Source of the DNA: Pyrinomonadaceae bacterium
GTDB lineage: Bacteria > Acidobacteriota > Blastocatellia > Pyrinomonadales > Pyrinomonadaceae
Assembly (NCBI GenBank): GCA_023717565.1
Contig: JAMQPI010000675.1
Span: forward strand, 658-64,657
Direction of reading: 5' to 3'
Length of the DNA stretch: 64,000 bases
This document shows, piece after piece, positions 2,295 through 52,789 of the stretch. The notes beneath the pieces are model-generated. The model had not been told where the DNA came from. It did no database searches and saw only the letters and a list, made by a program, of their open reading frames with translations. Position 1 is the first letter of the stretch; the number at the start of each line of letters is the position of its first letter. The position numbers and the translations under genes are program-made.

Positions 2295-5200
2295 TCAGGT
2301 CGCCGAAAGACTTTCAACATCGGAGTCACGCCAAGTCAGCAGCACAGATTCTTCAGCATCACCATGACTTCTATAAGGACTGGACGTCATCGCCTCTTCT
2401 TCGTAGAGTCGTTGAGCAACTCTAAGGCATGGCGCTAGCTTTTCAGCCAGTACTTTTGCATATGGATCTACTGTTACGGCACCGTGAAAGCCGGGCACTT
2501 CGTGGATCTCAAGTGAGCCCCGCGCCATTCCGTGCCAGCCAAGACTATTGTCACGTACCACACCAGGTGGCTGACTTGCCGCCCGGAACAGGGTTAGCCT
2601 GCCGCCGTAGGGTTTCGGTTTGTACGATCTCAAAGCCCGGTCAATAGCTTTGTGATTGCGCTGTACGTCTTTCGGTAGTTGGCCGCCGGTTGCTGAGTTG
2701 AACGCGATTGCTATCTCGTTCTTTTTCCACGCAAGCTTGCGCACGAGCTTCTTCTGAAGCTTTCTAGTTTTCGCAACCAGGTAGCTAAGCTTCTCGCGGG
2801 ATGTGAGCAAATCCAAAGTTCGGTGTAGAGACCGAACCCTTTGGATACACCGAGCGAACCATCTCGTGAGTGATGTGGAACCTGGCATCAATTTGGGATA
2901 GCCCGGGCCATAGGTATCGAATAAGACAAGCAAGGCAACTACCTGCCCTTGATTCTCGAGTTGTCGCGCCATCTCAAAGGCGACAAGACCACCGAAGGAA
3001 GATCCCCCAAGATGGTAAGGCCCTTCCGGTTGGAATGCGCGAATCTCATTTAGATAGTACTCAGCCATCTCTTCGACACTGTCGTGAGTGGTCTGGTTTC
3101 GGTCCACGCCTCGAGCTTGTAAACCGTAGAGTGGTTGATCCAAGCCAAGATGTTTCGCTAGATCGCGGTAGAAAAGAACATCTCCGCCAGCCGCATGCAT
3201 GCAGTAGAAGGGCGGACGAGAACCCAAGGGTTGGATAGCCACGAGTGCGGACCACGCCTTCTCTCCGGGAGCATCGCGGAGACGACTAGCCAACTGTCTT
3301 ATAGTGGAAGCGCTGAGAAGAGTAACTAACGGAAGATGTCGCCCAAAACCCCTTTCAATTTCCGAAAAGAGCCTGACAGCCTGGAATGAATCACCTCCGA
3401 GTTCGAAATAGTTGTCATCGACACCTATCGGAGAAACTCCGAGCACGCCTTCCCAGATCGTCTTCAACTGCGCTTCAACTCTGTCCTCCGGCATAACCAT
3501 AGGGCCTGCCGCTTGGCGTAAGAGAGACTTCTCTGCCAGAACAGCGTTAGCAATTTGATCAACTGTGCTTAGTTCCGCAGGAACGCGCGCGAGGAACGAG
3601 GAGATGGTCGAAGCATTCGCAGCCTGTGTGCTCTCATTTCTTTCCAGATTATCCTCAGTAAGACGTGCCTTAATTTGGGTTGAACCGTCTAACCTGATGG
3701 TTACCGCCACCGCTGCCCGAACGCGGAACAGAGTTCCGTTTTCAACGGTCTGTACTTCTTCCGCCTCAATCTGACTAATGAATTCGTATGCGGGCCGATT
3801 CTTCGCAGTCGGCAGATAATTAATTTCAACGTATTCAAGTCCGCGTTCCAGAGCGATCACGCCGAGATGGGCGATCATTCTGTGCTCGACTCCCCGACCC
3901 AAGGCTCGACAACTTAAGAGAACCGTATCGACCGCAAGAGCATTCTCCTTCGCCTGGAAGATCATAGCTCCGACCAGTCCGTAGTCCCCGAAGCGATCGT
4001 TCACGTTAACAACATGACATTCGACCAATCCGGTTTCACAAAACTGTTCTATTTCGGAATCGGTTCGGCGTACCGTCGTGAAGTTGAACTGGTTCGTCCG
4101 TTGAGTAAGTTGCGAAACACGTGGCACCTGAGCGGGAAGCAACGGAGCGATGACAATTTCCAACCCCAAACCAGCTAAGAAATCCTGAAGAGTATCCGAG
4201 TGTGCACGGATCTGCTCTCGCTCAACATTGACCTTATAAAGATTGGTCCGATCCTGATCTTCCTTAGTAAGCCGAGATTGGTCGAAAGCCCAAACATGAC
4301 CGAGAAACGAAACAATCGCATCCGGCTCCTGCGGCAGTTGAAGGGTCAGAACCTCGGGGCAATTCGCCTGCACCTCATAGCAGACTGCTGGGTCGTCGTC
4401 AATAAAGATGAAACTGTCCAGCCCCAGATTCAGCTCAGACGCTAGTGAGCGCAAATTCTCAGATTTGGGTCTCCAATTTATTCTCCATGACACGATGTGG
4501 TCGCGTCTCATAGGCATTTCCGGGCGACGATCGAATACTTCGAAGACGTCCTCCTCGTTGTTCTTGCTACATAGACAGATCAGCATCCCTGCCTTAGATT
4601 GGTTCACCATGAACTCCTGAAGGGCGAGCCGTGACGGATCAATTTCCACTCCCATCGCGCCAACTTCTCCGCATATGCCTTTCCAGAGCGTTTGATCGCA
4701 ATCCAGCGCTATCACTTTGTGTGAAACGTTGGACAAACGATAGACTCTTCGAGCGATCATCGAAGACAGCGCAACGAAGAAGGACTGCGTGTATGGAATG
4801 TGACCCAGCCTGCTTCCTTCAAGGTCATCGTAATCTGCCACGAGGTATGTAGTAAGGAGCTCATCAGGCGTAACTAAGTGCACCGATTTTACGTCTGCAA
4901 GTTCGCTGCTAATCCGCTGCTCCAGCTCTTCTAGACAATCCCGCAACTCAGGTTCTTTTAGGGCAGCGCTGGAAGGCGGACAAATAACAAGCAAGTAAGG
5001 CACTGCGGAAACCTGTGCGGCTGTTCTCAGGGCCGAAATAAACTCACCAACACCCCTCCTGACCTTCTCACAGACGTCCGAGGGAAATTCTATCTTGCTG
5101 CTCTCATTGATATCGAATTTTCCCCAGTCTTCCAGCCTCACGAGGATCACGTTAATTCCGGCAAGATTGGAGCGGCAAACACTCGTCGGGTCCAGTAGCT

Positions 5201-5375
5201 GTTGAAACACCTGATTGTAGGGCGCAAACTCGACCGCCGAGGCATTACGCATCGCTTTCAACAAAAAGCAAAGCGGGTCATTGACTGGCTCGGCAGTAAA
5301 GGTCGCCGTGATTACAATTCTTTGCATCTGCACGTTGCTCACCACTTGCGGGAGGAAATCGGGCACCATCCGCAA
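2295..5375 (-). CDS. FkbH-like HAD phosphatase/acyltransferase + GNAT-like subdomain + carrier protein (PCP/ACP) + thioesterase fusion
   Basis: FkbH-type N-terminus (VITATFTAEP). HAD motifs ALDCDQTLW, CLCSKNNEED, FIFIDDDP. GNAT-like segment NQFNFTT...LLSCRALGRGVE. Phosphopantetheine site FELGGDSFQAVRL. Thioesterase GxSxG LGGSSFGG. Start uncertain (TTG 5375 or ATG 5327). Confidence 0.8.
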   Translation of the reverse strand: MRMVPDFLPQVVSNVQMQRIVITATFTAEPVNDPLCFLLKAMRNASAVEFAPYNQVFQQLLDPTSVCRSNLAGINVILVRLEDWGKFDINESSKIEFPSDVCEKVRRGVGEFISALRTAAQVSAVPYLLVICPPSSAALKEPELRDCLEELEQRISSELADVKSVHLVTPDELLTTYLVADYDDLEGSRLGHIPYTQSFFVALSSMIARRVYRLSNVSHKVIALDCDQTLWKGICGEVGAMGVEIDPSRLALQEFMVNQSKAGMLICLCSKNNEEDVFEVFDRRPEMPMRRDHIVSWRINWRPKSENLRSLASELNLGLDSFIFIDDDPAVCYEVQANCPEVLTLQLPQEPDAIVSFLGHVWAFDQSRLTKEDQDRTNLYKVNVEREQIRAHSDTLQDFLAGLGLEIVIAPLLPAQVPRVSQLTQRTNQFNFTTVRRTDSEIEQFCETGLVECHVVNVNDRFGDYGLVGAMIFQAKENALAVDTVLLSCRALGRGVEHRMIAHLGVIALERGLEYVEINYLPTAKNRPAYEFISQIEAEEVQTVENGTLFRVRAAVAVTIRLDGSTQIKARLTEDNLERNESTQAANASTISSFLARVPAELSTVDQIANAVLAEKSLLRQAAGPMVMPEDRVEAQLKTIWEGVLGVSPIGVDDNYFELGGDSFQAVRLFSEIERGFGRHLPLVTLLSASTIRQLASRLRDAPGEKAWSALVAIQPLGSRPPFYCMHAAGGDVLFYRDLAKHLGLDQPLYGLQARGVDRNQTTHDSVEEMAEYYLNEIRAFQPEGPYHLGGSSFGGLVAFEMARQLENQGQVVALLVLFDTYGPGYPKLMPGSTSLTRWFARCIQRVRSLHRTLDLLTSREKLSYLVAKTRKLQKKLVRKLAWKKNEIAIAFNSATGGQLPKDVQRNHKAIDRALRSYKPKPYGGRLTLFRAASQPPGVVRDNSLGWHGMARGSLEIHEVPGFHGAVTVDPYAKVLAEKLAPCLRVAQRLYEEEAMTSSPYRSHGDAEESVLLTWRDSDVESLSAT

Positions 5376-5471: not shown

Positions 5472-7451
5472 TTAGTCGCCACCGGCGGCAACATGAGAAC
5501 GTTCTATGAACGACTGCGGAATCGGTGCAAATTCTTCGCTCGGAATCTCCAATTGAGCCTCAGGCAATAGATCGTTAATTGCCTTGCGCAACTCGCGGTC
5601 CCAACCCTTCTGAGCCAAGATAGATAAACGCTCTAAAGCATGCCGAACTTTCTCTTCCGGGTACGCGGCAATCCTGCCAATGAAGATTTTTGGATGCCAT
5701 GTCTTCAAGACTACCTCATCGGTTGTTTGCAACTCCTCATAGAGTTTCTCGCCGGGACGCACACCGGTGAACACAATGTTGATGTCTTCAAAAGGTCGGA
5801 GTCCAGACAGTGCAATAGTCTCCTTAGCCAAATCCAGGATGCGCACAGGCTCACCCATGTCGAGGATGAATATCTCGCCGCCTCGACCTAAAGCTCCGGC
5901 CTGTAGAACGAGTTGGGAAGCCTCGGGAATAGTCATAAAGTAACGCACCATTTCGGGATGCGTTACTGTCACCGGCCCGCCACTGCGAATCTGATCCTGA
6001 AAGATTGGAATCACAGAACCAGCTGAACCAATAACGTTGCCGAAACGCACCGCCAGAAAACGCGTCTCCGACCGGTGATCTAAGTCCTGTATTACTAACT
6101 CTGCTACTCGTTTTGAAGCGCCCATGACCGAACTCGGGCGCACGGCTTTGTCCGTTGATATCAGTACGAACGCTTCAACGCCGAACTCAGAGGCCATCTC
6201 ACCGAGCAGGCTCGTGGCCAGTACATTGTTCTTAACTGCTTCGGAAGGATTCGTTTCCATCATAGGCACGTGCTTATGTGCCGCCGCATGCAGGATCACC
6301 TGAGGAGCATAGGTTTGGAAGATAGTATGCATCCGCGGCTTGTCACCTATATCGGCCACCAGGGCAATCACCTGAACCTGCGAGTCTTGGTTTCGCATTT
6401 CATGCTCAATTGCGAAAAGACCAAACTCAGCGCGTTCAACCAACAGCAGACAACTTGGTTGGAAGCGTGCCACCTGTCTAACCAGTTCGGACCCGATCGA
6501 ACCACCAGCGCCCGTGATCATGACGATCTTGCCGGCCAGGAAATTCTTCATGCTCTCTTGATCGAGTTGAACCTGTTCGCGGCCCAACAGATCTTCGATT
6601 TGCACGTCGCGAATCCGGCTCACTTTCAAATTGCCCTGCAACAGTTCGTAGATTCCTGGAACGGTGCGCACACGAACTTTGGCTCGTTCACAGATGTCGA
6701 GGATACGGCGGAAGTCTCGCCGAGAGGCCTCAGCAAAAGAGATCACTACGTGATCGATATTCAGCTCAGACACCAGTCGCGGAATATCTTCAGCCGTACC
6801 CATCACTTTGACGCCTTGTATAACGGAGCCCTGCTTTGCCGGGTCATCGTCAATGAATCCCTTCACCTCCATATCCACGTCTCCGCGGAGTCTGATTTCC
6901 CGGGCAATCATTACGCCAGCGCGCCCGGCTCCAATAAGGAGCACCGGCTTTCTTACTAAGCTACCAAGGGACTGACCCTTTCCGTTCTGCCGCTTTGAGC
7001 CTCGCTCGTATACCGCACGACGCAACACCCGCAGACCCAATACTCCACCGAAGGCTATCACCGTATCCATGACGATAATTGACAGCGGTACTCGGGCAGG
7101 TTGCAACTGTTCGGGCAGCCAGGTGCGAAGCGCGATCATTGGTAGTGCTGACCAGAGCGCTGCAGTTAAGAATGCTTTCACCTCCGCCATTCCAACGTAG
7201 CGCCAAACGAAGGCGTATATGCCGGCAAACCAAAGCAGCATTAACTGAAGCAGTAACACGAATGGGAGTTGGTAGAGCATGTGCTGGGTCTCCCGCTCCG
7301 AGATCACAAAATCAAACCGCAGCAGATATGCCAGCATGAACGCTAGTACTAATACGACAGTGTCGAGCGTGAATTGTGCTTGACGGGTAAGCAGTTTTGC
7401 TCGCCATGATCGCGATGAATTGGATCGATTGCGGGGCGTATCGATGACCAT
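5472..7451 (-). CDS. Membrane-anchored NDP-HexNAc 4,6-dehydratase (CapD/WbpM/PglF family)
   Basis: N-terminal TM helices. Rossmann motif VMITGAGGSIGSEL. HAAAHKHVPMME and STDKAVRPSSVMGASKRVAE (Met in place of the catalytic Tyr, as in this family). Confidence 0.9.
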   Translation of the reverse strand: MVIDTPRNRSNSSRSWRAKLLTRQAQFTLDTVVLVLAFMLAYLLRFDFVISERETQHMLYQLPFVLLLQLMLLWFAGIYAFVWRYVGMAEVKAFLTAALWSALPMIALRTWLPEQLQPARVPLSIIVMDTVIAFGGVLGLRVLRRAVYERGSKRQNGKGQSLGSLVRKPVLLIGAGRAGVMIAREIRLRGDVDMEVKGFIDDDPAKQGSVIQGVKVMGTAEDIPRLVSELNIDHVVISFAEASRRDFRRILDICERAKVRVRTVPGIYELLQGNLKVSRIRDVQIEDLLGREQVQLDQESMKNFLAGKIVMITGAGGSIGSELVRQVARFQPSCLLLVERAEFGLFAIEHEMRNQDSQVQVIALVADIGDKPRMHTIFQTYAPQVILHAAAHKHVPMMETNPSEAVKNNVLATSLLGEMASEFGVEAFVLISTDKAVRPSSVMGASKRVAELVIQDLDHRSETRFLAVRFGNVIGSAGSVIPIFQDQIRSGGPVTVTHPEMVRYFMTIPEASQLVLQAGALGRGGEIFILDMGEPVRILDLAKETIALSGLRPFEDINIVFTGVRPGEKLYEELQTTDEVVLKTWHPKIFIGRIAAYPEEKVRHALERLSILAQKGWDRELRKAINDLLPEAQLEIPSEEFAPIPQSFIERSHVAAGGD

Positions 7452-11032: not shown

Positions 11033-11205
11033 GAAAAGGCGTTTTGCTTGGGCTGCTTTGTTCCTCTCGGATTACTCGAATTGGTAAATGCGGCGTCCAA
11101 GTTTTCCCCTAAGTCGGTGCCCAACGTAATTGTCTCCACATCACCGTGCACAATGAGTTGGGGAGCTTGATAAGGCTTCTTTTCGGCTGGTGTATTTTCT
11201 TCCAT
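11029..11205 (-). CDS. Lasso-peptide precursor A2 (58 aa)
   Basis: MEENTPAEKKPYQAPQLIVHGDVETITLGTDLGENLDAAFTNSSNPRGTKQPKQNAFS. AAGGAAGG lies 4 nt upstream of the ATG at 11205. Thr at -2, Gly1 and Asp9 in the predicted core, C-terminal Ser. Paralog of the peptide at 12194..12355. Confidence 0.75.
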   Translation of the reverse strand: MEENTPAEKKPYQAPQLIVHGDVETITLGTDLGENLDAAFTNSSNPRGTKQPKQNAFS

Positions 11206-11255
11206 GATCCCTTCCTTTGCTTTTCTGTCGATCAATCCAAGTTCCTCATTTGAGT

Positions 11256-12170: not shown

Positions 12171-12193
12171 GACCGTTTTCTTCCTCTAGGAAC

Positions 12194-12355: not shown

Positions 12356-12421
12356 TTGAGTGTTGTCTCCTTAACTAGTTGAAGTGGGGAATTTGGAGCA
12401 TTTTGGGCTCCCGTCATTGGA

Positions 12422-19172: not shown

Positions 19173-19181
19173 GGCGTCTAA

Positions 19182-26104: not shown

Positions 26105-27049
26105 CTAAAGGCTAAAGGCTGTACCCCTCATGACGGACCAAAATCCTTCCAATCGTCCTAACAACTCCGAGGCATCGCTCGTCCTGCGCCGACGAATTGC
26201 GGAAGTGCCAACGCGAATAAGTTCAAGACCCTGGTACCGCCAGAAACGCGCTTTATGACTCCACGTCAGTGGGCCTACTATGTCTTGGAATACATAGTAA
26301 TAATTGACCACACACTTGTAGCCAATCTTCCTTCGATCGACGCGACCATTGGGTGAGTTAAGTTCGCTGCAATGAGCGTCCCCACATTGGACGAGTTGCC
26401 ATCTCTTCCCAGCGCGAAGCGAAAGGTGAGCATCCTCAAGCACGCCATAATCACGAAAGAAAGGATCAAATCTGAGTCCAGAATCAAAAACCTCTCGTCG
26501 CCAAACCGCGCAAGCCGTGGTCATGAAGTCAACCTCACGAACACCACTAAAAGGAGGCTGCATGTTGGCATTGATCGGATATCCAGTACGAAAGTCATAT
26601 CGACCCGGCTCAAATGTCGTTAGCATTCGCAGCCGGCGATACCATCGCCATCGTTGAGCGAAGGCTCGATCGAAATGCTGATTAGTACGGTAGCCCACGA
26701 CGCCACCTAGTTTGTGTTCACTGTCTCGCCCAAAGACACTCAGGCTCGCCTCGAAGAAATCGGATTCCAATCTGACATCGTCATCAATCAGGGCGACGAA
26801 AGAACCTCGGGCCCGATCTATGCCTTCGTTCCGTTGAATGGCTGTCCCACCAGAATGCCTCACATAGACACAGTGAAAAGGCAGGTCCCGGGTCATTGAG
26901 CGAACTGTTTCCTCTGTCTCCCGCTCCGACTCAGGGGATCCGTCCACTAAGATGACCTCGGACGGCAGCAATGTCTGCCGAGACAGATTCTCTAGTAGAC
27001 CGGCAACCTCGTGCGACCGGCGAAACGTGGGAGTCACAACTGAAATCAT
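26105..27049 (-). CDS. GT-A glycosyltransferase, family 2
   Basis: ISVVTPTFRRSHEV...VILVDGSP...ALIDDDV (DxD). Confidence 0.85.
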   Translation of the reverse strand: MISVVTPTFRRSHEVAGLLENLSRQTLLPSEVILVDGSPESERETEETVRSMTRDLPFHCVYVRHSGGTAIQRNEGIDRARGSFVALIDDDVRLESDFFEASLSVFGRDSEHKLGGVVGYRTNQHFDRAFAQRWRWYRRLRMLTTFEPGRYDFRTGYPINANMQPPFSGVREVDFMTTACAVWRREVFDSGLRFDPFFRDYGVLEDAHLSLRAGKRWQLVQCGDAHCSELNSPNGRVDRRKIGYKCVVNYYYVFQDIVGPLTWSHKARFWRYQGLELIRVGTSAIRRRRTSDASELLGRLEGFWSVMRGTAFSL

Positions 27050-28566
27050 GCGGTGCTGAATTCCACTTTCTGATTCGGCTGACGTAGTGAGTTACCGATT
27101 GCTGCAAGTCTGATCAGTCGATCGGCAACGCGAAGGCCTGAATACCCATCAAGAGTGTCGCCAAACATGCTCCTAATCAGGCTCTGTCGCTCCAAACGTC
27201 CCGCATCTGGCTCAACCAAAGCACGTCGCAACATCATTTGAAGTTCGGACTCCGAGCGAGCAACACTCACTGCTCCGCTAGCGACCACCTTCCGGTAGTG
27301 ATCGAATTTATAGTAACGACTGTAGTCGAGTTCCTTGATGTCCACGCCAGCAGGGTTGTACCCAACATTAATGACTGGCTTATCGAACATGCAGAGCTCG
27401 AGCGATACCGTAGAGGCGACGTTGATCCCGGCTGCGGCGTGCCTCAACATGTTTGTCAGCAGAGGTGAATCTTCCGGTCGGGGCGTTTGCCAGTTTGGCT
27501 CCCAAGGTATTCTGGGAAAGAGGACATCGGGATTCGACCGCCTAACCTGTTCAAAGCGACCTGTCTGATCTTTTGGATAAACTCGTACCATGAGCTGAGG
27601 CGAACCCAGGTCGGTCATTCCTCTCAGCATCGCAGCAATCGTTTCGACAATCTGGGGCTCACCCGGCATGTGGTTGGCCATACCCGTACTGTAAAGAACA
27701 ATCGGCCGGGTGGCGTCGGCACCCACACGAGCACAGAATTCTTCGCGCGACCATTGAAGCTCGGGCCGAAAATGAAAGTCGAACTGAGGTGTGCCGGTAA
27801 CGAATACCTGGTCGGGCCGAATGGTGTCGTAGATCTCAAGCAGTTGGTCTCTCAGTGCTTCATTCCAGACTAGATAATAATCGTAGGGCGCCATGATCCG
27901 ACCCTGAGAAGTTAGATTGTCCCAGGAGAAAACGAACGCGGCAGTAGGAATCTTGAGCCACTGGGCTGCCTGCACCGCCTGCATCGCTACACGGCTGTGG
28001 ATATGAGACCCATTGAAAACCAGAGAGGGGTTCAACTCACGAAACAGCTTGACGTAAGACTCAGTAGTCCGAAATCGTTGACTGGCTACGCGCTCGCATT
28101 TAGACAACAACCGTAACCCCGAGCGGCTGACAAACGGATAGCACGCCAGTTTTTTTATCAGGCGGCGTGCGCGCCGGCGTTCGACGATTGCCTCAGCGTC
28201 TCGCAGTCGCCAACGCTCTTGCGCAGCCTCGGACCACAGCCAACGCCCGTGGGCTAGATCCAATAACTCGCGCAGGGTGTTGACTATTCGCCGCTCCTCA
28301 ATTTCTGGCAGTGGGAATATGTTGTCTGAGCACTCACGCAATAGATCTTCAAACTCTTCACCCGGCAGGACCGAAAGCACGCTGAGTTCGACGTCGCGGG
28401 ACACCTCCTCGAGAGTTCCCGAATAAACAAAGTTACGGATTGCCTCTCCCCGCGGCAGGATGGTCACTAGATGGGGACCGCTCTCTTTCGTAGCCCTTTT
28501 GGTTCTGGCGCTAGTAGTTCGCGGTAACCCCAAAAACAACTCCAGTTCACGAATTTCTGTTGTCAT
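27046..28566 (-). CDS. Uncharacterised GT-B-like (TagF/KpsS-like) capsule-biosynthesis protein, paralog 2
   Basis: Shares SWDNLTSQGR, VTGTPQFDFHF and STVSLELCMFDKPVINVGYNP with the upstream gene. ATGA start/stop overlap at 28563..28566. Confidence 0.55.
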   Translation of the reverse strand: MTTEIRELELFLGLPRTTSARTKRATKESGPHLVTILPRGEAIRNFVYSGTLEEVSRDVELSVLSVLPGEEFEDLLRECSDNIFPLPEIEERRIVNTLRELLDLAHGRWLWSEAAQERWRLRDAEAIVERRRARRLIKKLACYPFVSRSGLRLLSKCERVASQRFRTTESYVKLFRELNPSLVFNGSHIHSRVAMQAVQAAQWLKIPTAAFVFSWDNLTSQGRIMAPYDYYLVWNEALRDQLLEIYDTIRPDQVFVTGTPQFDFHFRPELQWSREEFCARVGADATRPIVLYSTGMANHMPGEPQIVETIAAMLRGMTDLGSPQLMVRVYPKDQTGRFEQVRRSNPDVLFPRIPWEPNWQTPRPEDSPLLTNMLRHAAAGINVASTVSLELCMFDKPVINVGYNPAGVDIKELDYSRYYKFDHYRKVVASGAVSVARSESELQMMLRRALVEPDAGRLERQSLIRSMFGDTLDGYSGLRVADRLIRLAAIGNSLRQPNQKVEFSTA

Positions 28567-30059
28567 GCGCTCCCCTGGGCCTTTCTCTTCTCTTCTACAA
28601 AAGCCATAACCGCGCGAGCGGCGCGCTCGCCACACGAACCATCCAGGTATCCACACACATACTCAGCGATGGATCGCCTTTTCTCTCTGTGTAGTTCCGG
28701 CTTCACCAGATAAGTCTTTATGGCGTTCACGAGCTCGGCGAAATCATTCACCAGCCACACGCCCCCGGATTCAGCGACCGGTTTGAAGTGGGTCCAAAGA
28801 TGGTTGATCTCTTTGATGAGCGACTGATGCGGTTGTCCCGGCGCGGGGTCAAAGTCGAGGTTTATTACCGGACGATCAAAAATCGCCGCATCTATGGTTA
28901 CCGTGGAAGAGAGATTAACCACCACGTCGGCGTGACGAAAGGTGTTGACCCACTCGACAATCTGATTCTGATCCTGGAAACGCTCCGTAACCGAAGCGCC
29001 CGCGACCCCGGTCTGCTGCACTACCACTCGCGAACCGAATTTGCCAAACAACTCGTGCAGTTCGTGATTGTCATGGATAGGATGGGGGCGAACGAGCAAC
29101 TGAATGTCTTTCAGTTCGCCACGCGCTACCAGGTCCGCGACGTGAAGTGCTCCTGGCGTCTCAACGAGAAAATTGGGCGAACCGAGTGCATACACGACGA
29201 TCGGCAGATCGGGTCGCAGGCCCTGACTCTGACAAAACGCTTCGCGTGATCGGTGAAAGCGCTCCTGAAAGAAGAGGTCAAATTGCGGTGCCCCGACAAC
29301 GTGGACCGGGGCGTTCCGAGTAGCTGGATAAAACTGGTGCAACTCGCGACGAGCCGCCTCAGACCACACTAGGTAGCCGTCATGTTTAAAAAGCATCCGA
29401 TTCTTAGTCGAGAGGTTGTCCCAGGAAGGAATCAGCGCGAGAGTTGAAATTCCTTCTCTCTTCGCAGCTGCTACCACCGCGGGCTCGGTAAACCAGAAAG
29501 GATTGGTGCAAAGCAAAACATCTGGAGCGTTGAGTTTGAATCGCCTCGTCGCTTCCGGGCTGCGCTCATATGCCCGCAGGCGTCGCTCAAGCCAACCCTC
29601 GAAAGCACGCTCAACCCGCAACGCAGCCAGTATCCGGGCTGGTGTCTTTAGAGCACGCACATAAGGATGGGCGTTGCGGTCTCTGATGTGACGCATCATG
29701 CTCAGTCGACTGGGGGGTCTTTGCCTAAAGTCCCAGGCATACTCGTTGAGCCGGCGCAGGTAGTTATGAGGAAACTCGCGAAAAGCCAACACATCGGGAA
29801 ACTCCGAGATCTGCGCGCGCGAGTGTTTCCAGGCTTCATAGAACTTAGGATTGCTTGCAGAGGTGGCCCACACATCGACCGGTCCAGACTCGCTGAGTGC
29901 ATCAATGAATCCGCTATGAAGCAACATGCGGTCGGTAAGCAGTGACGACGACAGCACTAGACACCCTCTCGCCACCTCACGGGCGCCGTCCACCTGGTCC
30001 GGCTCAACCAGACCCCGGGTTTCCAGACAGGCTTCGACTTGTTCGATTTGAGTTACCAA
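28563..30059 (-). CDS. Uncharacterised GT-B-like (TagF/KpsS-like) capsule-biosynthesis protein, paralog 1
   Basis: SWDNLSTKNR, VVGAPQFDLFF, LLVRPHPIHD, STVTIDAAIFDRPVINLDFDP. Confidence 0.55.
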   Translation of the reverse strand: MVTQIEQVEACLETRGLVEPDQVDGAREVARGCLVLSSSLLTDRMLLHSGFIDALSESGPVDVWATSASNPKFYEAWKHSRAQISEFPDVLAFREFPHNYLRRLNEYAWDFRQRPPSRLSMMRHIRDRNAHPYVRALKTPARILAALRVERAFEGWLERRLRAYERSPEATRRFKLNAPDVLLCTNPFWFTEPAVVAAAKREGISTLALIPSWDNLSTKNRMLFKHDGYLVWSEAARRELHQFYPATRNAPVHVVGAPQFDLFFQERFHRSREAFCQSQGLRPDLPIVVYALGSPNFLVETPGALHVADLVARGELKDIQLLVRPHPIHDNHELHELFGKFGSRVVVQQTGVAGASVTERFQDQNQIVEWVNTFRHADVVVNLSSTVTIDAAIFDRPVINLDFDPAPGQPHQSLIKEINHLWTHFKPVAESGGVWLVNDFAELVNAIKTYLVKPELHREKRRSIAEYVCGYLDGSCGERAARAVMAFVEEKRKAQGSA

Positions 30060-32520: not shown

Positions 32521-33591
32521 TTAACCCTTAATGTCAGAGGGATCATAAGTAATTCGTTCAGGGCGCCGCCAAAGGTAATGCCGTACGGTCGAATGCTCTT
32601 CCGATTGCCTGACTTTGTGGCGATTCTTCCCACGCGACGACTCTCGCATCACCGCCTGGTGTGCAGCCTCAAGGCCTCCTATGACGCTCAGGTCTCCGCG
32701 ATAAGTCTTGCTCAAGTCGTCGAAGTAGCAATCGGCAACCAGTTGAAAAAACTCGGCCCCGGGCAAGGCACAGAAAACCTCAAAATACCGAGGATCGGGG
32801 GTACTTTCAAACAAATGGGCATTCCAAGCGGCCAAGCCCATCGCAATGTGGTCGTAACGACAAAAGCGATTCTGAGATTGGTAGCATTCCAACAAGCGTC
32901 TCTTCTCTTCCGCCACGGTGGTAATGTCAACGTAGCCATTCACAAATGGCGTGTTGTGAACCTGATACCCCCACACTTCAAAATCTCCAATGCCGCTGCG
33001 TTTATGCGCGAGCCATAGCAAGTGATTTACCAATCGATGTTTCGACGGCCAATCCAATAACCAGGGCGCCATAACAATATCGGGTTTGGTCTCGAGTATG
33101 ATATTCGACAAGCGGTCGACGTCATCAAGCGAAGGTTTGGGAGCCAGATTTGAAATCCCAAGGTTATGTACTTGTGCCCCGAGCTGGGCACACGCCCTCT
33201 CAGCTTCTTGGGCGCGAACGAAGCGCACATTTGCGGGCTGATCGGTCTTCGTTTGAGCCCCATCAGTAATGTATAGAACGTGAATCTTCACACCAGCCTT
33301 GGAGGCTAGGAGAAGCGACCCTCCAGGTCCGATTGATTCGTCATCCTGGTGTGGAGCCAGAACAAGGATTGACTTCAGTTTCTCAACTGGAAGCGGAAGA
33401 GGTTGGACCTCAGATCTAAAGGACTCGACTTCTAGTACGCGCCGCGCCAACTCCATGTCGGAGATTCCCCGCCATTCTCTGACGGCAAAACGGTATGGTC
33501 CACGTTGCGCGCGAAGAGCAAGCAACTCCCTCACAAACGCTCGATGCCGATAGGGGTTGAGCTTCTTGAGCCAGTTAAACATGGATCTCAT
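32521..33591 (-). CDS. PIG-L/LmbE-family de-N-acetylase
   Basis: LVLAPHQDDESIGPGG motif. Confidence 0.85.
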   Translation of the reverse strand: MRSMFNWLKKLNPYRHRAFVRELLALRAQRGPYRFAVREWRGISDMELARRVLEVESFRSEVQPLPLPVEKLKSILVLAPHQDDESIGPGGSLLLASKAGVKIHVLYITDGAQTKTDQPANVRFVRAQEAERACAQLGAQVHNLGISNLAPKPSLDDVDRLSNIILETKPDIVMAPWLLDWPSKHRLVNHLLWLAHKRSGIGDFEVWGYQVHNTPFVNGYVDITTVAEEKRRLLECYQSQNRFCRYDHIAMGLAAWNAHLFESTPDPRYFEVFCALPGAEFFQLVADCYFDDLSKTYRGDLSVIGGLEAAHQAVMRESSRGKNRHKVRQSEEHSTVRHYLWRRPERITYDPSDIKG

Positions 33592-38959: not shown

Positions 38960-41095
38960 CTAAAACTCAACCAGGTCAGCCTTTCGCAGCTGCTGAACAA
39001 CATCTCTCACGGAATTAAACCCCACACCGCATTCGCGCGCTATCTCCGCAATTGAGAGCGTGCCATCTATCCGGTCAAGAATATTGAAAAGCGAATTGTG
39101 ACCTTCGGGATTCGAGTACCAATCCACGTGAAGACCGTAGCGCGAGCAGAAAGGCTCTCCCTTAAACTTGTTTACCGGCACCCGGTTCGACTCTAGTGTG
39201 TCGATCATCGACAGCACCATATCGCGGGAATCTTCAAGGTGCTTGATCGATACCAGACTCGGATTGTCAAAGCTGGAGTGATACTCGCGATAAGGCCAAT
39301 CGGGCGAACTGGGTGGAAGCACTCGCGACAAAGACAGGAACGGAATCCGCACGCCTGGACCATTAAACTGCCGCTCGTCGTTTCCAATCACGGTACGGAA
39401 GGGACCCGTCCAGCCATGAAAGTCGTGCTCCTTCAGTGCCAGCGTGAAGCAGAGATCAAGATCGGTATTCGCTTGAAAGGAAAGTTGTAGACCGTGCGGG
39501 TAATCAAGCCCAAGCATCTCGAGAAACATTCCGCCTTTTATCTTCGGAATGAGATCGGGATTGTGACTCAGGTAAGCGATTGACCCAATGGTTTCCGGCA
39601 CAATCAAATAACGATAGGTGTACCGCAGGTCCTTTCGCTTAAGCAGCTCTTGGGCAACCTTGATTCCAACGATTACGCCACTAAGGTCGTCATTCGCCTG
39701 ATGAGGATGACAAAGATGGGAACACAACACTATCGACTCATCGCTCTGGCCCGGAATCACAACCTCTCCGACTTTCAGAGTGCTGTAGCTGAAGTCAGTT
39801 TTGATTACAACCCGGTATTGATCTTCCGTTAACGTGTCTCTTAAGTTCTTACTACAACACAAGCCCCAGCTGCGCTCGTAGTACTTGAAAATGAAGGGAA
39901 TCGCCTCGGCGAGTTTTGGGTGTACGTAGAGATGCTTCAGCAACTCATCGCGATTGACGACGCCATCAAACGGCAACGAATAGGAAACCACGTGAAGCGG
40001 ATTATCAGCGTAGGAAAAGAGTCGCCTCCCGTCCATTGTTTCGAGATAAGCTTCATGGCAGGTCCACTTTTCGGGAATTATCCAGCTCCAGCATTCAGTG
40101 CCAGTGGGGTATTCGTGAATCGTCATCGGCACTTGAGTCGCCAGCGCTTCTAAAGCGGCATCGTAGCCATCGGAAATAATGTCACGAGGAAGACTCCACA
40201 GTGCATTCATCAATTCCGACTCAGTCGCAACCGCCGGAAGAGTAACCCGTTGGCTCGAGGCGGATACTCTCTCCTTTTCGAACTCTACCGGATCACCAAT
40301 AGGTCCCCTGGCCGTCAACCAAGGGTCTTGCTCCAACTCGCGCAGCGTAAGATCAAAGTACTCACGGCAGTCGACCGTCTTAACCTGACCGAGGCCGACA
40401 GGCGCGATTGAGCACTTGCCGGCTTCAATGGCCTTCCGTTCCAACCGAATACCATCGGGATACCCATTCTCTGCCATCACGCGAACGTTGTAGACCCAGC
40501 CGGACTTCTGCAAGCCTTTGCCGTTTCGAATGTAACCGGTAAAAAGTTTCTTGAACCGGAAGGGTACCTGCACCAGTTCTTCCACATAGTGACGAAAGGT
40601 CGCCTCATCAAGTCCGACACCAATCATGCAGATCTTGCCGCCTACCCGTAGCAACCGTTCATGCACGCTGCCGGATCCAAAGCAGCTGTTTGGCAGGTCC
40701 GTTAGTAATTCCTGGGCTTTTGGTCCCAGGCCCGCCACGGAATGTATTGGGTCCGCAGAACGAACTACTCCCGGAAGCTGGCGAAAGAATTCCAGAAAGT
40801 CTACTGAGGTGCTCCAGGGTCCGCCCGCTGTGGGCGTGTCATGAAGGTCGAAGACTTCCTGCTTGCAGAGAGAAAACGTATAAGTCGGAACTAAGATTGT
40901 TCCATCAGGGCCCACGACACTTTGAAGCGCATCCAAGATCGATTCACAAATCTGTTCGGAGGTATTGCAGCCTTTCAGATGTCCCAGATTCTCAACACAT
41001 AAGTGAAAGAACACAGTGTCTCCGGCTCCGAGGCCGGTCTTTTGTAACTGAGCGATGAAATCCGCTTGTGTGTAATGCCAATCCGTAAAAGTCAC
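38960..41095 (-). CDS. Fusion of an AAC(3)-type N-acetyltransferase domain with an aminopeptidase-like (COG4310/DUF4910-type) domain and a C-terminal winged-helix
   Basis: N-terminal 270 aa: GDTVFFHLCVENLG, GTILVPTYTF, DPIHSVAGLG. Remainder: HLCHPHQANDDLSGV, IVPETIGSIAYL, and a C-terminal LSIAEIARECGVGFNSVRDVVQQL. Confidence 0.7.
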   Translation of the reverse strand: MTFTDWHYTQADFIAQLQKTGLGAGDTVFFHLCVENLGHLKGCNTSEQICESILDALQSVVGPDGTILVPTYTFSLCKQEVFDLHDTPTAGGPWSTSVDFLEFFRQLPGVVRSADPIHSVAGLGPKAQELLTDLPNSCFGSGSVHERLLRVGGKICMIGVGLDEATFRHYVEELVQVPFRFKKLFTGYIRNGKGLQKSGWVYNVRVMAENGYPDGIRLERKAIEAGKCSIAPVGLGQVKTVDCREYFDLTLRELEQDPWLTARGPIGDPVEFEKERVSASSQRVTLPAVATESELMNALWSLPRDIISDGYDAALEALATQVPMTIHEYPTGTECWSWIIPEKWTCHEAYLETMDGRRLFSYADNPLHVVSYSLPFDGVVNRDELLKHLYVHPKLAEAIPFIFKYYERSWGLCCSKNLRDTLTEDQYRVVIKTDFSYSTLKVGEVVIPGQSDESIVLCSHLCHPHQANDDLSGVIVGIKVAQELLKRKDLRYTYRYLIVPETIGSIAYLSHNPDLIPKIKGGMFLEMLGLDYPHGLQLSFQANTDLDLCFTLALKEHDFHGWTGPFRTVIGNDERQFNGPGVRIPFLSLSRVLPPSSPDWPYREYHSSFDNPSLVSIKHLEDSRDMVLSMIDTLESNRVPVNKFKGEPFCSRYGLHVDWYSNPEGHNSLFNILDRIDGTLSIAEIARECGVGFNSVRDVVQQLRKADLVEF

Positions 41096-50306: not shown

Positions 50307-51030
50307 GAGCCTCTACTTCCCTCCTCGATAGACTCATCAACATCTCTGCCATCGCCCAGTCATCCTCTGTGTCGATGTCCAGCCCACGCTGCCACGGGAT
50401 TTCCCATCCGGTCCGAGTTGGAACGTGATAGGTCTTTTCGCGCCGAAGCACTTCCGCCTTGGCCCACCAGATGACACCCGTGGGACATAACAGCTCAGGC
50501 AAGTCCTGGCTACGTCGTAACACCTGCTGATTGAAGATCGGTCTCAGTTCGTAACTTTGAGTGCGCTCCATCGCCCACCAAGGATTTTGCCAGCCAAAAC
50601 GTGTCACCGATATTTGCGACTCGGCAGCGGTGGAAACGAATTGCTCAAAGCTAGCACAGACATCGTTCGAATCTCGCAGCGGGCAGTTTGCCATCAGCTG
50701 GGCCACGTTTTGATACTCTTCACCATTTGGGTCGAGTCGGTTCAGTGCGTCAACCGTAGCCAACGAAACCGGTGTATCGTCGTCAGCCAGAACCAAGTCT
50801 CGCAGAAAAGGAACCTCTGCGCCGTGGCGCTCCGCAATCTTGGCGATCTCTTCGCTGTCGGTACTGACAACCACTCGCGCAAAAAGCCCGCTAGTTAGAG
50901 CAGCCTCGATCGTATACGCGATCAAGGGCTTGCCGAGCATCGTTCGAATGTTCTTGCCACGGACTCTCTTTGACCCACCTCGAGCCGGGATAACCGCGAT
51001 CTGGTTGCGTTTCTGACCTGGACTAGGCAC
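50299..51030 (-). CDS. CMP-nonulosonate cytidylyltransferase (NeuA/PseF/LegF family)
   Basis: IAVIPARGGSKRVRGKNIR...GKPLIAYTIEAAL. Start placed at GTG 51030, which overlaps the upstream stop by 8 nt. The ORF maximum extends to 51108. Confidence 0.85.
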   Translation of the reverse strand: MPSPGQKRNQIAVIPARGGSKRVRGKNIRTMLGKPLIAYTIEAALTSGLFARVVVSTDSEEIAKIAERHGAEVPFLRDLVLADDDTPVSLATVDALNRLDPNGEEYQNVAQLMANCPLRDSNDVCASFEQFVSTAAESQISVTRFGWQNPWWAMERTQSYELRPIFNQQVLRRSQDLPELLCPTGVIWWAKAEVLRREKTYHVPTRTGWEIPWQRGLDIDTEDDWAMAEMLMSLSRREVEAHV

Positions 51031-52759
51031 CGGCAAACGCCCCCCTGTTGGCCAGTAGTCCAACACCGATCCATTGCCAAATGTAGAAGCTGTTGTCAGC
51101 CTCTCCACTGCAGTAGTTTTTCCATTCCGCGCGCACGGAATGTCGGTCTAACCAGGAATTGCCATATGCCGCCAACGCTTCTTCGATCTGACCGGTGGCC
51201 CACTCGCGTAAGGGTCCGCGCAGCCATTCGCGTTGAGGTGTTTGTAGCGGTCGCTTCGGTGCTTCGACTACACCATCCGGAAGCAGATTCTTTGTTATCT
51301 GTCGTAGCAACCACTTGCCTGTACCGTTGGCAATTTTCCGCTCGGCAGGCTGGCGAAGAGCCAGTTCGAAGAGCCGATGATCCAGGAAGGGCTCTCTCAA
51401 CTCGGTCGAAGCGCGCATCGAGACGCGATCGTTGAAGCGCATTGCTCGCGGAATCTTGGTATAACGAGCGTCACGATATTGGAGGTTGCGCAAAGAGTCG
51501 TGAAAGCAATTTGAAGAGCTAAATTGACTGGCCTGCGCGCGAAATTCCGGTGTCAAGCATTCGGCACGTGTGGGACTTTCGCGGGTTCCCTGTACGACCG
51601 AAGTATCATTTCCATTGGCATTTCGGTAATAGTCATATCCGGCCCACTGCTCGTCCATCCCATTCCCATCCAGCAGAACTATTACTCCCTCCGACCGCGC
51701 TGTCTCAAAGAGACGAGCATAGGCCAGTGTCGGTAGTCCACCGAAGGGTTCGTCTTGTGAAATCTGAACCGACTCGGCAAGTGCAGGCACCTCATGCGCT
51801 TCCAGACGACATTCAACTAACTCATGATGCGTTCGACTGAGCATCTGTCGCACCCAGGGCAGTTCGTCATATTGCGGATCGCCGGTCGTGAAGGTGAAAG
51901 CTTTGACGTCGCTGTCCTTACCCTGCGCAGCGTGTACGAGGCCCAACAATGTGGAGGAATCCAGGCCGCCACTCAAATTGATCCCAACCGGAACGTCAGA
52001 GCGAAATCGGAGTTTTACGCTCTCCTCTAGTAAAGCTACATACTCCTCCTGCACATCCGTGATAGACCGGTCATCAAAACGGTCGCCAGTTCGCGCGGCG
52101 AGGTCATACCAACAGGAGACCGAGAGGCGTCCATCCTGCCAACTTAAGGAGTGCCCCGGAGGCAACGCATGAATGCCTTTCCAGAACGAGCGTTCGCTAT
52201 GGTCCGATAGACCAAGGGCCAGGTATGTTGCCCAGGAAGTTTCGTCCGGTTCCTGAGGAACACCAGCGGCATGCAGCGCCTTTATTTCGCTAGCAAGCAT
52301 TAGAGTACCGTCGACTCCATAATGAAAGTAGACGGGCTTGACACCGAAACGATCTCGCGCAGCAAAGAGTTTTTTTGAACGCTGATCCCAAATGGCGAAG
52401 GCAAACATGCCGATGAGGTGATCCAGACATCGCTCACCCCACTTTTCGAAGGCTGCTAGCAGGACTTCCGTGTCAGTGCGTGTACTGAAGGAATAATTCA
52501 GTTCCTGACGCAGTTCAAGATAGTTATAGATCTCGCCGTTGAAGCTAATGTGGTAGCGACCCGTAGGATCAGACATTGGCTGGCGGCCCGCTTCCGAGAG
52601 ATCGATAATCTTGAGGCGGTTGTGCCCCAATCCAGCGTGAGATTCAGGATCAATGTACTTGCCATCGCCGTCTGGTCCGCGATGACGCTGACTTGCCACC
52701 ATCGCGTTCAATTGCGACTGGTTCCAGTTACTTCCAAAAATGCCGGCGATTCCACACAT
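51023..52759 (-). CDS. Glutamine-dependent amidotransferase of the asparagine synthetase B family (second copy)
   Basis: MCGIAGIFG (Cys2). PP-loop NLSGGLDSSTL. Confidence 0.9.
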   Translation of the reverse strand: MCGIAGIFGSNWNQSQLNAMVASQRHRGPDGDGKYIDPESHAGLGHNRLKIIDLSEAGRQPMSDPTGRYHISFNGEIYNYLELRQELNYSFSTRTDTEVLLAAFEKWGERCLDHLIGMFAFAIWDQRSKKLFAARDRFGVKPVYFHYGVDGTLMLASEIKALHAAGVPQEPDETSWATYLALGLSDHSERSFWKGIHALPPGHSLSWQDGRLSVSCWYDLAARTGDRFDDRSITDVQEEYVALLEESVKLRFRSDVPVGINLSGGLDSSTLLGLVHAAQGKDSDVKAFTFTTGDPQYDELPWVRQMLSRTHHELVECRLEAHEVPALAESVQISQDEPFGGLPTLAYARLFETARSEGVIVLLDGNGMDEQWAGYDYYRNANGNDTSVVQGTRESPTRAECLTPEFRAQASQFSSSNCFHDSLRNLQYRDARYTKIPRAMRFNDRVSMRASTELREPFLDHRLFELALRQPAERKIANGTGKWLLRQITKNLLPDGVVEAPKRPLQTPQREWLRGPLREWATGQIEEALAAYGNSWLDRHSVRAEWKNYCSGEADNSFYIWQWIGVGLLANRGAFAGA

Positions 52760-52789
52760 AAAGAAAAACCTGGTATTAGCCCTTGCTAT

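Follow-up and report, generated by a model that had tools for sequence, protein, structure and literature searches.

A stand-alone FkbH-carrier-thioesterase protein in a glycan locus of a Pyrinomonadaceae bacterium, a candidate glyceroyl donor for a nonulosonic acid or amino sugar

The gene and its product

The window analysed here is a stretch of 64,000 nucleotides from a soil acidobacterium of the Pyrinomonadaceae (contig JAMQPI010000675.1, assembly GCA_023717565.1). Its minus strand carries an open reading frame of 1026 codons at 2295..5375, which opens at a TTG codon at 5375. Since the identical protein on record (P0002) has 1010 aa and alignments with homologues start near residue 18, the ATG at 5327 (Met17) was taken as the likely start. 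The 1026-aa frame described in an earlier, sequence-only reading of this DNA is real, and all four motifs named in that reading were found in the translation (ALDCDQTLW at residues 222-230, FIFIDDDP at 322-329, GGDSFQA at 660-666 and GGSSFGG at 790-796). The gene and the domains of its product, ordered from the N to the C terminus as an SGNH-like N-domain, an FkbH HAD phosphatase, a GNAT-like subdomain, a peptidyl-carrier domain (PCP) and a type-I thioesterase (TE), are as follows:

2295..5327, minus strand: FkbH-PCP-TE gene, likely ATG start at 5327, 1010 aa, product identical to P0002
4731..5327, minus strand: SGNH-hydrolase-like N-terminal domain, residues 17-215 (AF2 pLDDT 96; Foldseek)
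4176..4730, minus strand: HAD-IIIC phosphatase core of FkbH (TIGR01686 and TIGR01681; fold match 3SLR)
3696..4175, minus strand: GNAT-like subdomain of FkbH, residues ~401-560 (Foldseek GNAT matches, conservation)
3261..3500, minus strand: peptidyl-carrier domain (PF00550 PP-binding, 55.5 bits, residues 636-698)
2406..3230, minus strand: NRPS-type thioesterase (PF00975, 99.9 bits against a cut-off of 26.4, from residue 722; PDB sequence matches AB3403, EntF and Pks13 PCP-TE)

The family assignments were borne out in Pfam/TIGRFAM searches, in which TIGR01686, PF00550 and PF00975 all matched far above chance. The FkbH model scored 293.3 bits over residues 219-537 (cut-off 146.65, E 2e-87) and 296.9 bits in a search of the genome, where this FkbH copy was the only one. 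The catalytic residues of the protein are all intact and are conserved across 114 homologues. Promoter and terminator scans of the regions flanking the gene gave chance-level results only.

The HAD motifs consist of motif I (D225-C226-D227-x-T229, where x is Q), S270, K304 and D326-D327, each conserved in at least 113 of the 114 homologues. An AlphaFold model of residues 17-560 (pLDDT 90) was compared with PDB 3SLR, the N-terminal part of BF1531, and gave a TM-score of 0.77. The GNAT-like subdomain claimed earlier was recovered in the same model, the C-terminal ~150 residues of which matched dozens of GNAT acetyltransferases. Within this subdomain S488-C489-R490 was invariant among the 114 homologues and was accompanied by an RxxGxG-type motif; the subdomain is presumed to be the site of pantetheine binding and glyceryl transfer. 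An acyl-S-enzyme intermediate exists in the FkbH family (PMC9057759), and the invariant C489 is a candidate for the cysteine that forms it. The chemistry of FkbH is established from OzmB and its relatives, and NRPS modules in which FkbH replaces the A domain have been described (PMC9057759, PMC7489565, PMC8949500, PMC13122637).

The SGNH-hydrolase-like domain at residues 17-215 was absent from the earlier reading. Its best Foldseek match was 3SLR, with lower-ranking matches (TM ~0.5) to PatB, Cj0610c and carbohydrate esterases. The nucleophile position is taken by a threonine (Thr27) and no histidine of the domain is invariant among the homologues, which makes hydrolytic activity improbable; the domain corresponds to the FkbH_N-type domain that long FkbH proteins carry. 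A role as a sugar acyltransferase was considered and rejected on the same two residue findings and because the domain is also present in NRPS-embedded FkbH modules.

The phosphopantetheine serine of the carrier domain is S663 in a GGDS motif (codon 3387-3389), which was kept in 114 of 114 homologues. The TE has a basic lid of ~100 residues and an S793/D820/H964 triad, with position 793 occupied by Ser in 102 and by Cys in 12 of the 114 homologues. An Sfp-type PPTase is encoded co-directionally ~1.2 kb past the right end of the window (255-aa ORF, 68.9 bits; C702:65872-66192), and PPTase genes adjoin the homologous loci L025, G073, G178, L038, L039, L069 and L105.

Gene neighbourhood in the window

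The placing of the gene at the distal end of a glycan locus proved correct: it is the last gene on the minus strand and lies opposite a convergent beta-helix gene. A PglF-type dehydratase gene is located directly upstream, co-directional and separated by 144 nt, an adjacency repeated in locus L142, while the nonulosonic-acid (NulO) genes of the window are 45-50 kb away. The relevant neighbours are as follows:

5472..7451, minus strand: PglF/CapD/WbpM-type membrane 4,6-dehydratase (Polysacc_synt_2, 382 bits, plus CoA_binding_3)
27046..30059, minus strand: two TagB-like proteins of the BFO_1060/TIGR04396 kind, candidate NulO transferases
32521..33591, minus strand: PIG-L/LmbE-type de-N-acetylase (PF02585, 67.9 bits)
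35151-36632: third TagB-like protein (TIGR04396, 269.6 bits against a cut-off of 125)
38960..41095, minus strand: fusion of an AAC(3)-like N-acyltransferase, a DUF4910/DUF2172 (aminopeptidase-like) domain and HTH_47
51023..53581, minus strand: methyltransferase and AsnB-type amidotransferase at the end of a conserved NulO cassette (counterparts in L041, L025 and L016 are 56-63% identical)
53578..56492, minus strand: NeuB-NeuC-NeuA, NulO set A (in relatives, loader-PCP-TE directly follows this NeuA)

The BFO_1060-type TagB-like family functions in NulO transfer (PMC5420450). The fusion protein at 38960..41095 has a domain content like that of Cj1296/7 plus Cj1295, and Cj1295 is required for the di-O-methylglyceroyl-Pse modification in Campylobacter jejuni (PMC3068675). 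Judging from the deacetylase of the G042 and G155 cassettes described below, the PIG-L-type enzyme could expose an amine that is then acylated anew.

All 45 ORFs of at least 150 aa were scanned with Pfam, and the window contained no KS, A or C domain, in agreement with the sequence-only reading. The one protein of adenylating type, at 17751-19172, is PaaK/CapK-like, and its AMP-binding match was sub-threshold. The scan of the ORFs also found no acetyltransferase of the PglD/PseH/LegH type in the window, nor any match to MBOAT or AT3; no free ACP or ketosynthase was present there, the carrier domain being the fused one.

Homologues and their neighbourhoods

A scan of contigs with the single protein as query mostly returned FkbH modules within megasynthases, which are not orthologues; architectures were sorted by domain BLAST before neighbourhoods were counted. 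The stand-alone architecture was found in ~40 of the 150 best representatives of clusters at 50% identity. The survey of neighbourhoods upheld the association with glycan loci, as ~20 of 22 stand-alone loci with usable flanks (window counted) were situated among glycan genes, which included GT2, GT4, AT3-SGNH, AsnB, Wzy and PGT genes. Two cyanobacterial members had no glycan neighbours. In a sample of 151 genomes of the class, all four genomes with FkbH-PCP-TE had NeuB on the same contig, within 3 kb in two of them.

The closest orthologues (L142, L039 and L143) are neighboured by PGT, PglF and CapK-like genes, and over the 10 kb examined they have no NulO gene. In L142 the FkbH-PCP-TE gene follows DegT-PGT-PglF, at the place where PglD would be expected. 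A weak hexapeptide acetyltransferase match adjoins the gene in L042, so a simple reading in which the protein replaces PglD fails in that locus. The expectation of the same position after PglF within the same genus was borne out only partly: in G006 a convergent gene lies between PglF and the F-A-PCP-TE gene, and in G014 a multi-protein NRPS-like set was found.

A cassette of the order NeuB-NeuC-NeuA, loader-PCP-TE, PPTase, methyltransferase and AsnB is shared by relatives from the same family and class; its loader position is held by FkbH, by formyltransferase-A, or by FkbH together with a second A-PCP-TE. FkbH-PCP-TE directly follows NeuB-NeuC-NeuA in L041, G073 and G178, the last two with the extra A-PCP-TE. 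The same slot in L025 is filled by Formyl_trans-A-PCP-TE and a PPTase, and this PCP-TE is 50% identical to that of the window. At least five loader changes were forced by well-supported branches of the PCP-TE tree. The loader is an exchangeable part, with A or formyltransferase-A on a related PCP-TE at the same cassette place. Read by eye from motif positions, the A-domain specificity codes of L020 and L030 are presumably Gly-like and that of L025 possibly Ala-like; these readings were given no weight. The TE lids of L041 and L025 were compared as a possible pointer to a common acceptor, but they differ and give no such pointer.

In G042 and G155 the NulO operon holds a split version in the same slot, with a GNAT-like transferase and a deacetylase beside FkbH and a free ACP. 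Because these cassettes have a transferase of their own, the fused TE appears to hold the place of one.

Proposed function

We consider, with moderate confidence, that the FkbH-PCP-TE protein serves the glycan locus as an NRPS-like acyl donor reduced to a single module, N-glyceroylating its nonulosonic acid or an amino-hexose precursor. Judged by family membership and intact residues, FkbH would convert 1,3-bisphosphoglycerate to a phosphoglyceryl-S-enzyme, from which the phosphate would be removed, and D-glyceryl would then be passed to the phosphopantetheine arm on Ser663 of its own carrier, the arm having presumably been installed by the Sfp-type transferase of the same contig. The fused TE would take the glyceryl group onto Ser793 and release it to a sugar nucleophile and not to water. 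TE domains of the PF00975 NRPS kind normally hydrolyse or cyclise, and the only case of intermolecular TE transfer to a sugar known to us is that of Pks13.

Synteny suggests that the acceptor would be the nonulosonic acid of the locus or its nucleotide-linked amino-hexose precursor, with an amine either freed by the PIG-L-type deacetylase or made as a 4-amino group after the PglF-type dehydratase. A 4-amino-hexose acceptor is equally possible because of the distance of the gene from the NulO genes and its adjacency to the dehydratase gene. This would yield a nonulosonic acid bearing an N-glyceroyl (less likely an O-glyceroyl) group, to be incorporated into the exported polymer by the TagB-like transferases. 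The glyceroyl decoration of the glycan or NulO proposed in the sequence-only reading was strengthened by the intact domains, by the lack of an assembly line in the window and by the comparative-genomic link to glycan and NulO genes; the origin of the glyceroyl group in 1,3-bisphosphoglycerate, its transfer by the TE itself, and the acceptor sugar and atom are what we infer.

Alternative explanations

It is rather unlikely, though the best of the alternatives, that glyceryl-S-PCP is made while the TE hydrolyses mis-primed carrier or gives up the acyl moiety to CoA or to some other protein, transfer to the sugar being left to a separate enzyme. This enzyme could be the AAC(3)-like/DUF4910 fusion at 38960-41095, an N-acyltransferase joined to a Cj1295-like domain (PMC3068675), or AT3(-SGNH) in other subclades. 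AT3 or AT3-SGNH does adjoin the gene in five more distant loci, and the split cassettes have their own GNAT-like transferase. However, AT3 is lacking in the clade of the window, and the fusion is not conserved with the gene, having been found only in L026, beside a free FkbH. None of the 114 homologues has lost the TE triad, and loader swaps have left the TE in place, so a specific release step fits better than a housekeeping one.

An NRPS-like small-molecule pathway unrelated to the glycan, in which the protein acts in trans with synthetases elsewhere or releases a glycerate ester or oligomer, is judged somewhat less probable again. At 42-45% identity, the relatives are the last modules of genuine NRPS lines (L144, and many megasynthases); C-A-PCP-TE or NRPS-PKS genes stand beside FkbH proteins in L010, L020, L043, L069 and G014, and further carrier-domain proteins are encoded on other contigs of the bacterium's own genome. 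Against this, the N-terminal C domain carried by the NRPS-embedded forms is missing from the stand-alone form, the window has none of the C, KS or NRPS A domains of such a pathway, and the neighbourhoods consist mostly of glycan genes and in several genomes lie inside NulO operons.

Tailoring of adjacent lasso peptides, for example by acylation of a phosphorylated C-terminal serine, is very improbable. The window, the P0012 locus and L038, in the last directly upstream, each have a kinase-type lasso cluster within 10 kb of the gene, but most members of the family have no lasso genes nearby, and no cluster was found in L039, in L143 or in L142 (10 kb upstream; the contig ends ~120 nt downstream). 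The position of the cluster with respect to PglF differs between the window and L038, which gives it the look of an insertion.

Equally improbable is glyceryl-S-PCP as primer or chain-end cap, and not side-chain decoration, of an ABC-transporter-exported polymer, a role for which we know of no precedent: the locus has Wzm and a Wzt with a C-terminal cap-binding domain, and glycerate offers two glycosylatable hydroxyls, but the loader can be formyltransferase-A, which leaves no obvious glycosyl acceptor.

Comparison with known systems

Nonulosonic acids of bacterial surfaces have a wide range of N-acyl groups, which shapes immune and phage recognition. Beyond acetyl, acetimidoyl and formyl groups, the enzymes that install them are to our knowledge largely not known. 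N-glyceroyl NulOs have been described in Tannerella and Campylobacter, their enzymes have not (PMC5378307, PMC5420450, PMC6388019, PMC3068675). The FkbH-carrier-thioesterase protein of the NulO cassettes is a concrete single-protein candidate for glyceroyl addition that can be expressed and assayed. We put forward only tentatively, as a broader possibility, that loader-PCP-TE proteins might form an undescribed modular acylating class for NulOs and amino sugars, in which an NRPS-type TE takes the role of the acetyl-CoA-dependent PseH, LegH or PglD. The loaders (FkbH, A, formyltransferase-A, or a tandem pair for two amino groups) might then yield glyceroyl, aminoacyl and N-formyl-aminoacyl diversity of legionaminic and pseudaminic acids, and FkbH loading might supply the genetic basis so far lacking for N-glyceroyl ('Gra') NulOs such as Pse5Am7Gra. 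That loaders are swapped in nature suggests that the mechanism is general and might be exploited to produce NulOs carrying acyl groups of choice.

The same HAD and GNAT-like unit, with a carrier directly downstream, is found in the FkbH/OzmB systems (FK520, oxazolomycin, tetronates, and the vioprolide, cystomanamide and suomilide/aeruginosin loading modules); in NRPS lines the FkbH domain substitutes for the A domain (PMC8949500, PMC13122637, PMC9057759). Unlike these, the window protein has no downstream C or KS partner, has its own TE and is set in polysaccharide/NulO loci. OzmB (366 aa) lacks the SGNH-like N-domain.

The cj1295-cj1304 locus of C. jejuni NCTC 11168 has an FkbH-domain gene (cj1302) in a NulO locus, the product of which is 5-N-(2,3-di-O-methylglyceroyl)-pseudaminic acid, bearing a group of the N-glyceroyl type; none of the enzymes of this route has been characterised (PMC3068675, PMC7099621). 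Compared at the level of domains only, the window likewise has FkbH, NulO genes and a Cj1295-like DUF4910/DUF2172 protein. In C. jejuni the FkbH, the ACPs (acpP2/3) and a KAS III (fabH2) are separate and there is no fused TE, whereas the carrier in the window is fused. In Tannerella forsythia the enzymes that install Gra are likewise not known (PMC5378307, PMC6388019). The NulO of that organism, Pse5Am7Gra, is a 7-N-glyceroyl pseudaminic acid; its TagB-like NulO transferase is Tanf_01245/BFO_1060, and the window has three proteins of that kind.

In the Dlt system (D-alanylation of teichoic acids) and in AlmEFG (glycine on Vibrio lipid A), a small acyl group is carried on a dedicated carrier protein to a surface glycoconjugate. 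The carrier logic is the same as that proposed here; those systems use an adenylating loader and an MBOAT/DltD or LpxM-like acyltransferase, whereas the window has an FkbH loader, a fused NRPS-type TE as the release catalyst and no MBOAT.

The TE of mycobacterial Pks13 transfers its acyl chain to a trehalose hydroxyl and not to water. The sequence of its ACP-TE didomain is like residues 605-993 of the window protein, a generic PCP-TE likeness in which EntF and AB3403 were equal or better. Pks13 differs in its very long mycolyl chain and its PKS context; if the reading proposed here is correct, the FkbH-PCP-TE protein would be a further case of an NRPS-type thioesterase transferring to a sugar.

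The FkbH-PCP-TE protein

Translation of the minus-strand ORF at 2295..5375 gave 1026 residues with no internal stop. The identical database protein (P0002) has 1010 residues and homologue alignments start at about residue 18, so the gene probably begins at the ATG at 5327 (Met17), 144 nt past the stop of the upstream gene. The sequence-only reading had described a fusion of FkbH, GNAT-like, carrier (PCP) and thioesterase (TE) parts. Its four quoted motifs were all found in the translation, and the fusion was confirmed using NCBIfam (TIGR01686 FkbH, 293 bits against a cut-off of 147, residues 219-537), Pfam (PP-binding, residues 636-698; Thioesterase from residue 722) and the predicted fold.

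The AlphaFold model of residues 17-560 (pLDDT 90) was matched to PDB 3SLR, the N-terminal part of Bacteroides fragilis BF1531, which includes a phosphatase domain (TM 0.77 over 372 columns). Since the last ~150 residues of this model align with dozens of GNAT acetyltransferases, the predicted fold bears out the GNAT-like subdomain. A further domain, absent from the earlier description, spans residues 17-215 (pLDDT 96); its nearest folds were 3SLR and then SGNH enzymes, PatB and Cj0610c among them (TM about 0.5). Thr27 occupies the position of the SGNH nucleophilic Ser, no invariant His was found in the domain by homologue conservation, and NRPS-embedded FkbH modules carry the same domain. We take it as a putative non-hydrolytic part of "long" FkbH proteins.

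Conservation was read from 114 aligned homologues, each 940-1050 residues long. Invariant or nearly so were the HAD residues D225, D227, T229, S270, K304 and D326-D327, Cys226 within HAD motif I, the S488-C489-R490 motif of the GNAT-like part, the carrier serine S663 and the TE triad S793 (Ser in 102, Cys in 12), D820 and H964. The FkbH family converts 1,3-bisphosphoglycerate through phosphoglyceryl-S-enzyme and glyceryl-S-enzyme to glyceryl-S-carrier (PMC9057759 on OzmB; PMC7489565), and in NRPS modules an FkbH domain can stand in for the A domain (PMC8949500, PMC13122637).

The glycan locus

All window genes except one are carried on the minus strand and together make up one very large glycan locus. 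Export and assembly genes (Poly_export, Wzz, two Wzy_C proteins, Wzm, Wzt) are accompanied by many GT4 and GT2 genes, a WbpL-like initiating transferase, a PglF-type dehydratase, and nonulosonic acid (NulO) genes comprising two NeuB, one NeuC and two CMP-transferase genes. The locus also holds a PtmE-like CBS-nucleotidyltransferase, a LegB-like dehydratase, a DegT aminotransferase, a formyltransferase, a pyruvyl transferase, two PhyH-like dioxygenases, a PIG-L-type deacetylase, two AsnB-type amidotransferases and a CapK/PaaK-like ligase. KS, C and NRPS A domains are all absent from the window, as first read, and no PglD/PseH/LegH-type acetyltransferase was found there.

Features of the window
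7744-15203: kinase-type lasso-peptide cluster
17751-19172: CapK/PaaK-like adenylating enzyme
27046-28656, 28563-30059 and 35151-36632: three TagB-like paralogues with matches to BFO_1060_trans (NCBIfam) and TIGR04396, the third at 269.6 bits against a cut-off of 125
38960-41095: 711-aa fusion of AAC(3)-like N-acyltransferase, DUF4910/DUF2172 (aminopeptidase-like) and HTH_47
42534-44132 and 41142-42530: HAD-UbiA prenyltransferase fusion and adjoining PMT_2 (GT-C) protein
44039-51108: second NulO gene set (PtmE-like CBS-nucleotidyltransferase, LegB-like dehydratase, DegT, formyltransferase, second NeuB, 300-aa protein of unknown kind, second CMP-transferase)

The TagB-like proteins are candidate NulO transferases because the BFO_1060/Tanf_01245 family is that of the Tannerella NulO (Pse/Leg) transferase (PMC5420450); three paralogues suggest a NulO-rich polymer. 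The second NulO set points to synthesis, from a GDP-sugar, of an N-formyl legionaminic-type acid. The HAD-UbiA and PMT_2 pair recalls synthesis of a polyprenyl-phosphate sugar donor for an extracytoplasmic glycosyltransferase.

The window's genome has one FkbH gene. An Sfp-type phosphopantetheinyl transferase (PPTase; 255-aa ORF, PF01648 68.9 bits, C702:65872-66192 on the window's own contig, locus L126:1453-2220, minus strand) lies ~1.2 kb beyond the right end of the window, co-directional with the glycan locus and at its head, two genes upstream of Poly_export.

Distribution of relatives

Searching by word index gave 120 clusters of ~1000 residues that share this architecture, with identities of 42-66%. 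Among the best 150 representatives in a 50%-identity library, about 40 were stand-alone proteins of 940-1070 residues; the rest were FkbH-PCP(-TE) modules within synthetases of up to 6216 residues, and one C-FkbH-PCP-TE relative terminates a true NRPS line. Judged from these synthetase-embedded relatives, the module type is already known and the stand-alone form is the variant.

Twenty-nine stand-alone loci were sorted by domain BLAST, and their neighbours were labelled with the aid of precomputed Pfam tables. About 20 of the 22 with usable flanks sit among glycan genes, the exceptions being two cyanobacterial members amid housekeeping genes. Recurrent neighbours were GT4 (11 loci), AsnB (7), GT2 (6), AT3 or AT3-SGNH membrane acyltransferases (5) and PPTases (4), and in the close clade Wzy, PglF, initiating transferases and CapK-like ligases. 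A CapK/PaaK-like enzyme lies within a few genes of FkbH-PCP-TE in five of six close-clade loci (window, L039, L142, L143 and the locus of database protein P0012). In a more distant subclade of metagenome loci the gene stands beside AT3 or AT3-SGNH (L069, L075, L089, L093, L095) and, in four loci, beside a ~660-aa protein without Pfam matches (L052, L075, L081, L093). Kinase-type lasso clusters lie <10 kb from the gene in three related loci (window 7744-15203, L038:1428-9016, P0012 locus), at differing positions relative to PglF; this proximity may reflect recurrent insertion or lineage history, not shared function.

No full-length gene was found in 36 other genomes of the same genus, several of which carry ~1380-residue A-PCP-TE proteins instead. 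The gene is therefore accessory and exchangeable, as functions that decorate glycans usually are.

Synteny and loader exchange

Of the evidence linking the gene to NulO, synteny is the strongest. In locus L041 (45% identity, 5.4-Mb genome) the order is Wzm - NeuB - x - NeuC - NeuA - [FkbH-PCP-TE] - AsnB - PhyH - two TagB-like genes - GT2 - MT - GT4 - GT4 - Wzy, and each flanking gene is 46-71% identical to some window gene. Two genomes of the window's own family (G073, G178) have NeuB - NeuC - NeuA - [FkbH-PCP-TE] - [A-PCP-TE, 940 aa] - PPTase - MT - AsnB. The tandem FkbH-type and A-type genes (L145, G073:C6; L146, G178:C161) might supply two acyl donors, one for each amino group of a 5,7-diamino NulO. 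The window's own cassette is NeuB - NeuC - NeuA - MT - AsnB, with a 4-nt overlap of NeuA and MT; by gene order, the loader gene (its FkbH domain is predicted to charge the PCP) and the PPTase have evidently moved to opposite ends of the locus. In 151 genomes evenly drawn from the class, FkbH was present in 23; four of these have FkbH-PCP-TE, each with NeuB on the contig that carries it. The distance is 3 kb in two of the four and ~44-50 kb in the other two, G045 and the window's genome.

Cassettes with a different or split loader
L025:3922-8295 and 8304-9014 (Chloracidobacterium MAG): 1457-residue Formyl_trans-A-PCP-TE protein, then Sfp-type PPTase, between NeuA and MT-AsnB of the same cassette
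L147 (G042:C5:5847-11234) and L148 (G155:C22): split cassette between NeuB and NeuC, with MaoC-SDR, long free FkbH (Pfam FkbH_N match), 80-aa ACP, Acetyltransf_9 and Polysacc_deac_1

The L025 protein places an LgrA-like formylating initiation module inside a sialic-acid-type operon. Its PCP-TE is 50% identical to that of the window, as is that of L041. In a tree built from 101 PCP-TE didomains, members with non-FkbH loaders were scattered among FkbH-fused ones, and well-supported branches require the loader to have changed at least five times. Because L025 and L016 branch just beyond the clade containing the window and L041, the swap is not recent. In locus L010, a 1707-aa FkbH-PCP-TE-plus protein (9839-14962) and a C-A-PCP-TE protein (16213-19950) have nearly identical didomains (branches 0.03-0.05), which points to recent internal duplication.

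The split version, in two other genomes of the class, reads PhyH - NeuB - [MaoC-SDR] - free FkbH - small ORF - ACP - GNAT-like (Acetyltransf_9) - polysaccharide deacetylase - NeuC. As a gene order, it spells out a putative "deacetylate, then re-acylate from carrier protein" logic, and its dedicated transferase occupies the place of the TE in the fused proteins.

Acceptor and release

The gene comes after the initiating part of the locus both in the window and in its closest orthologues, so the acceptor could be the 4-amino group of UDP-4-amino-4,6-dideoxy-HexNAc, later N7 of a legionaminic- or pseudaminic-type acid. The order is DegT - Bac_transf - PglF - [gene] in L142, which has no PglD-like acetyltransferase, and AsnB - [gene] - CapK in L143; in the P0012 locus the gene follows a WecA/WbpL-like transferase. 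Alternatively, the PIG-L-type deacetylase could free an amine that serves as acceptor, or the acceptor could be a hydroxyl. The TE may transfer or hydrolyse; in five distant loci the AT3(-SGNH) acyltransferase beside the gene might be the final catalyst.

The earlier proposal, a glyceryl unit off-loaded by the TE onto a sugar amine or hydroxyl, is reasonable and gains from synteny, natural loader swaps and the locus-linked PPTase; the chemistry is predicted only. We modestly favour FkbH-PCP-TE as a putative glyceroyl donor for the NulO or amino-sugar precursor of the locus, released by its own TE.

Comparison with known systems

In the searchable literature, the few papers mentioning both FkbH and polysaccharide do not treat an FkbH role in a glycan, FkbH with thioesterase and glycerate appears in PKS/NRPS work only, and no description of a stand-alone FkbH-PCP-TE was found. 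Two N-glyceroyl NulOs are known examples. The first is Pse5Am7Gra of Tannerella forsythia; its papers state that a search for the modifying enzyme identified none (PMC5378307, PMC5420450, PMC6388019). With FkbH-PCP-TE, that question can be put to a direct test on a single soluble protein. The second is the 5-N-(2,3-di-O-methylglyceroyl) pseudaminic acid of C. jejuni 11168, which requires Cj1295 (PMC3068675), and the FkbH-domain gene cj1302 lies within that locus (PMC7099621). In a domain-level comparison, the window fusion at 38960-41095 equals C. jejuni Cj1296/7 plus Cj1295.
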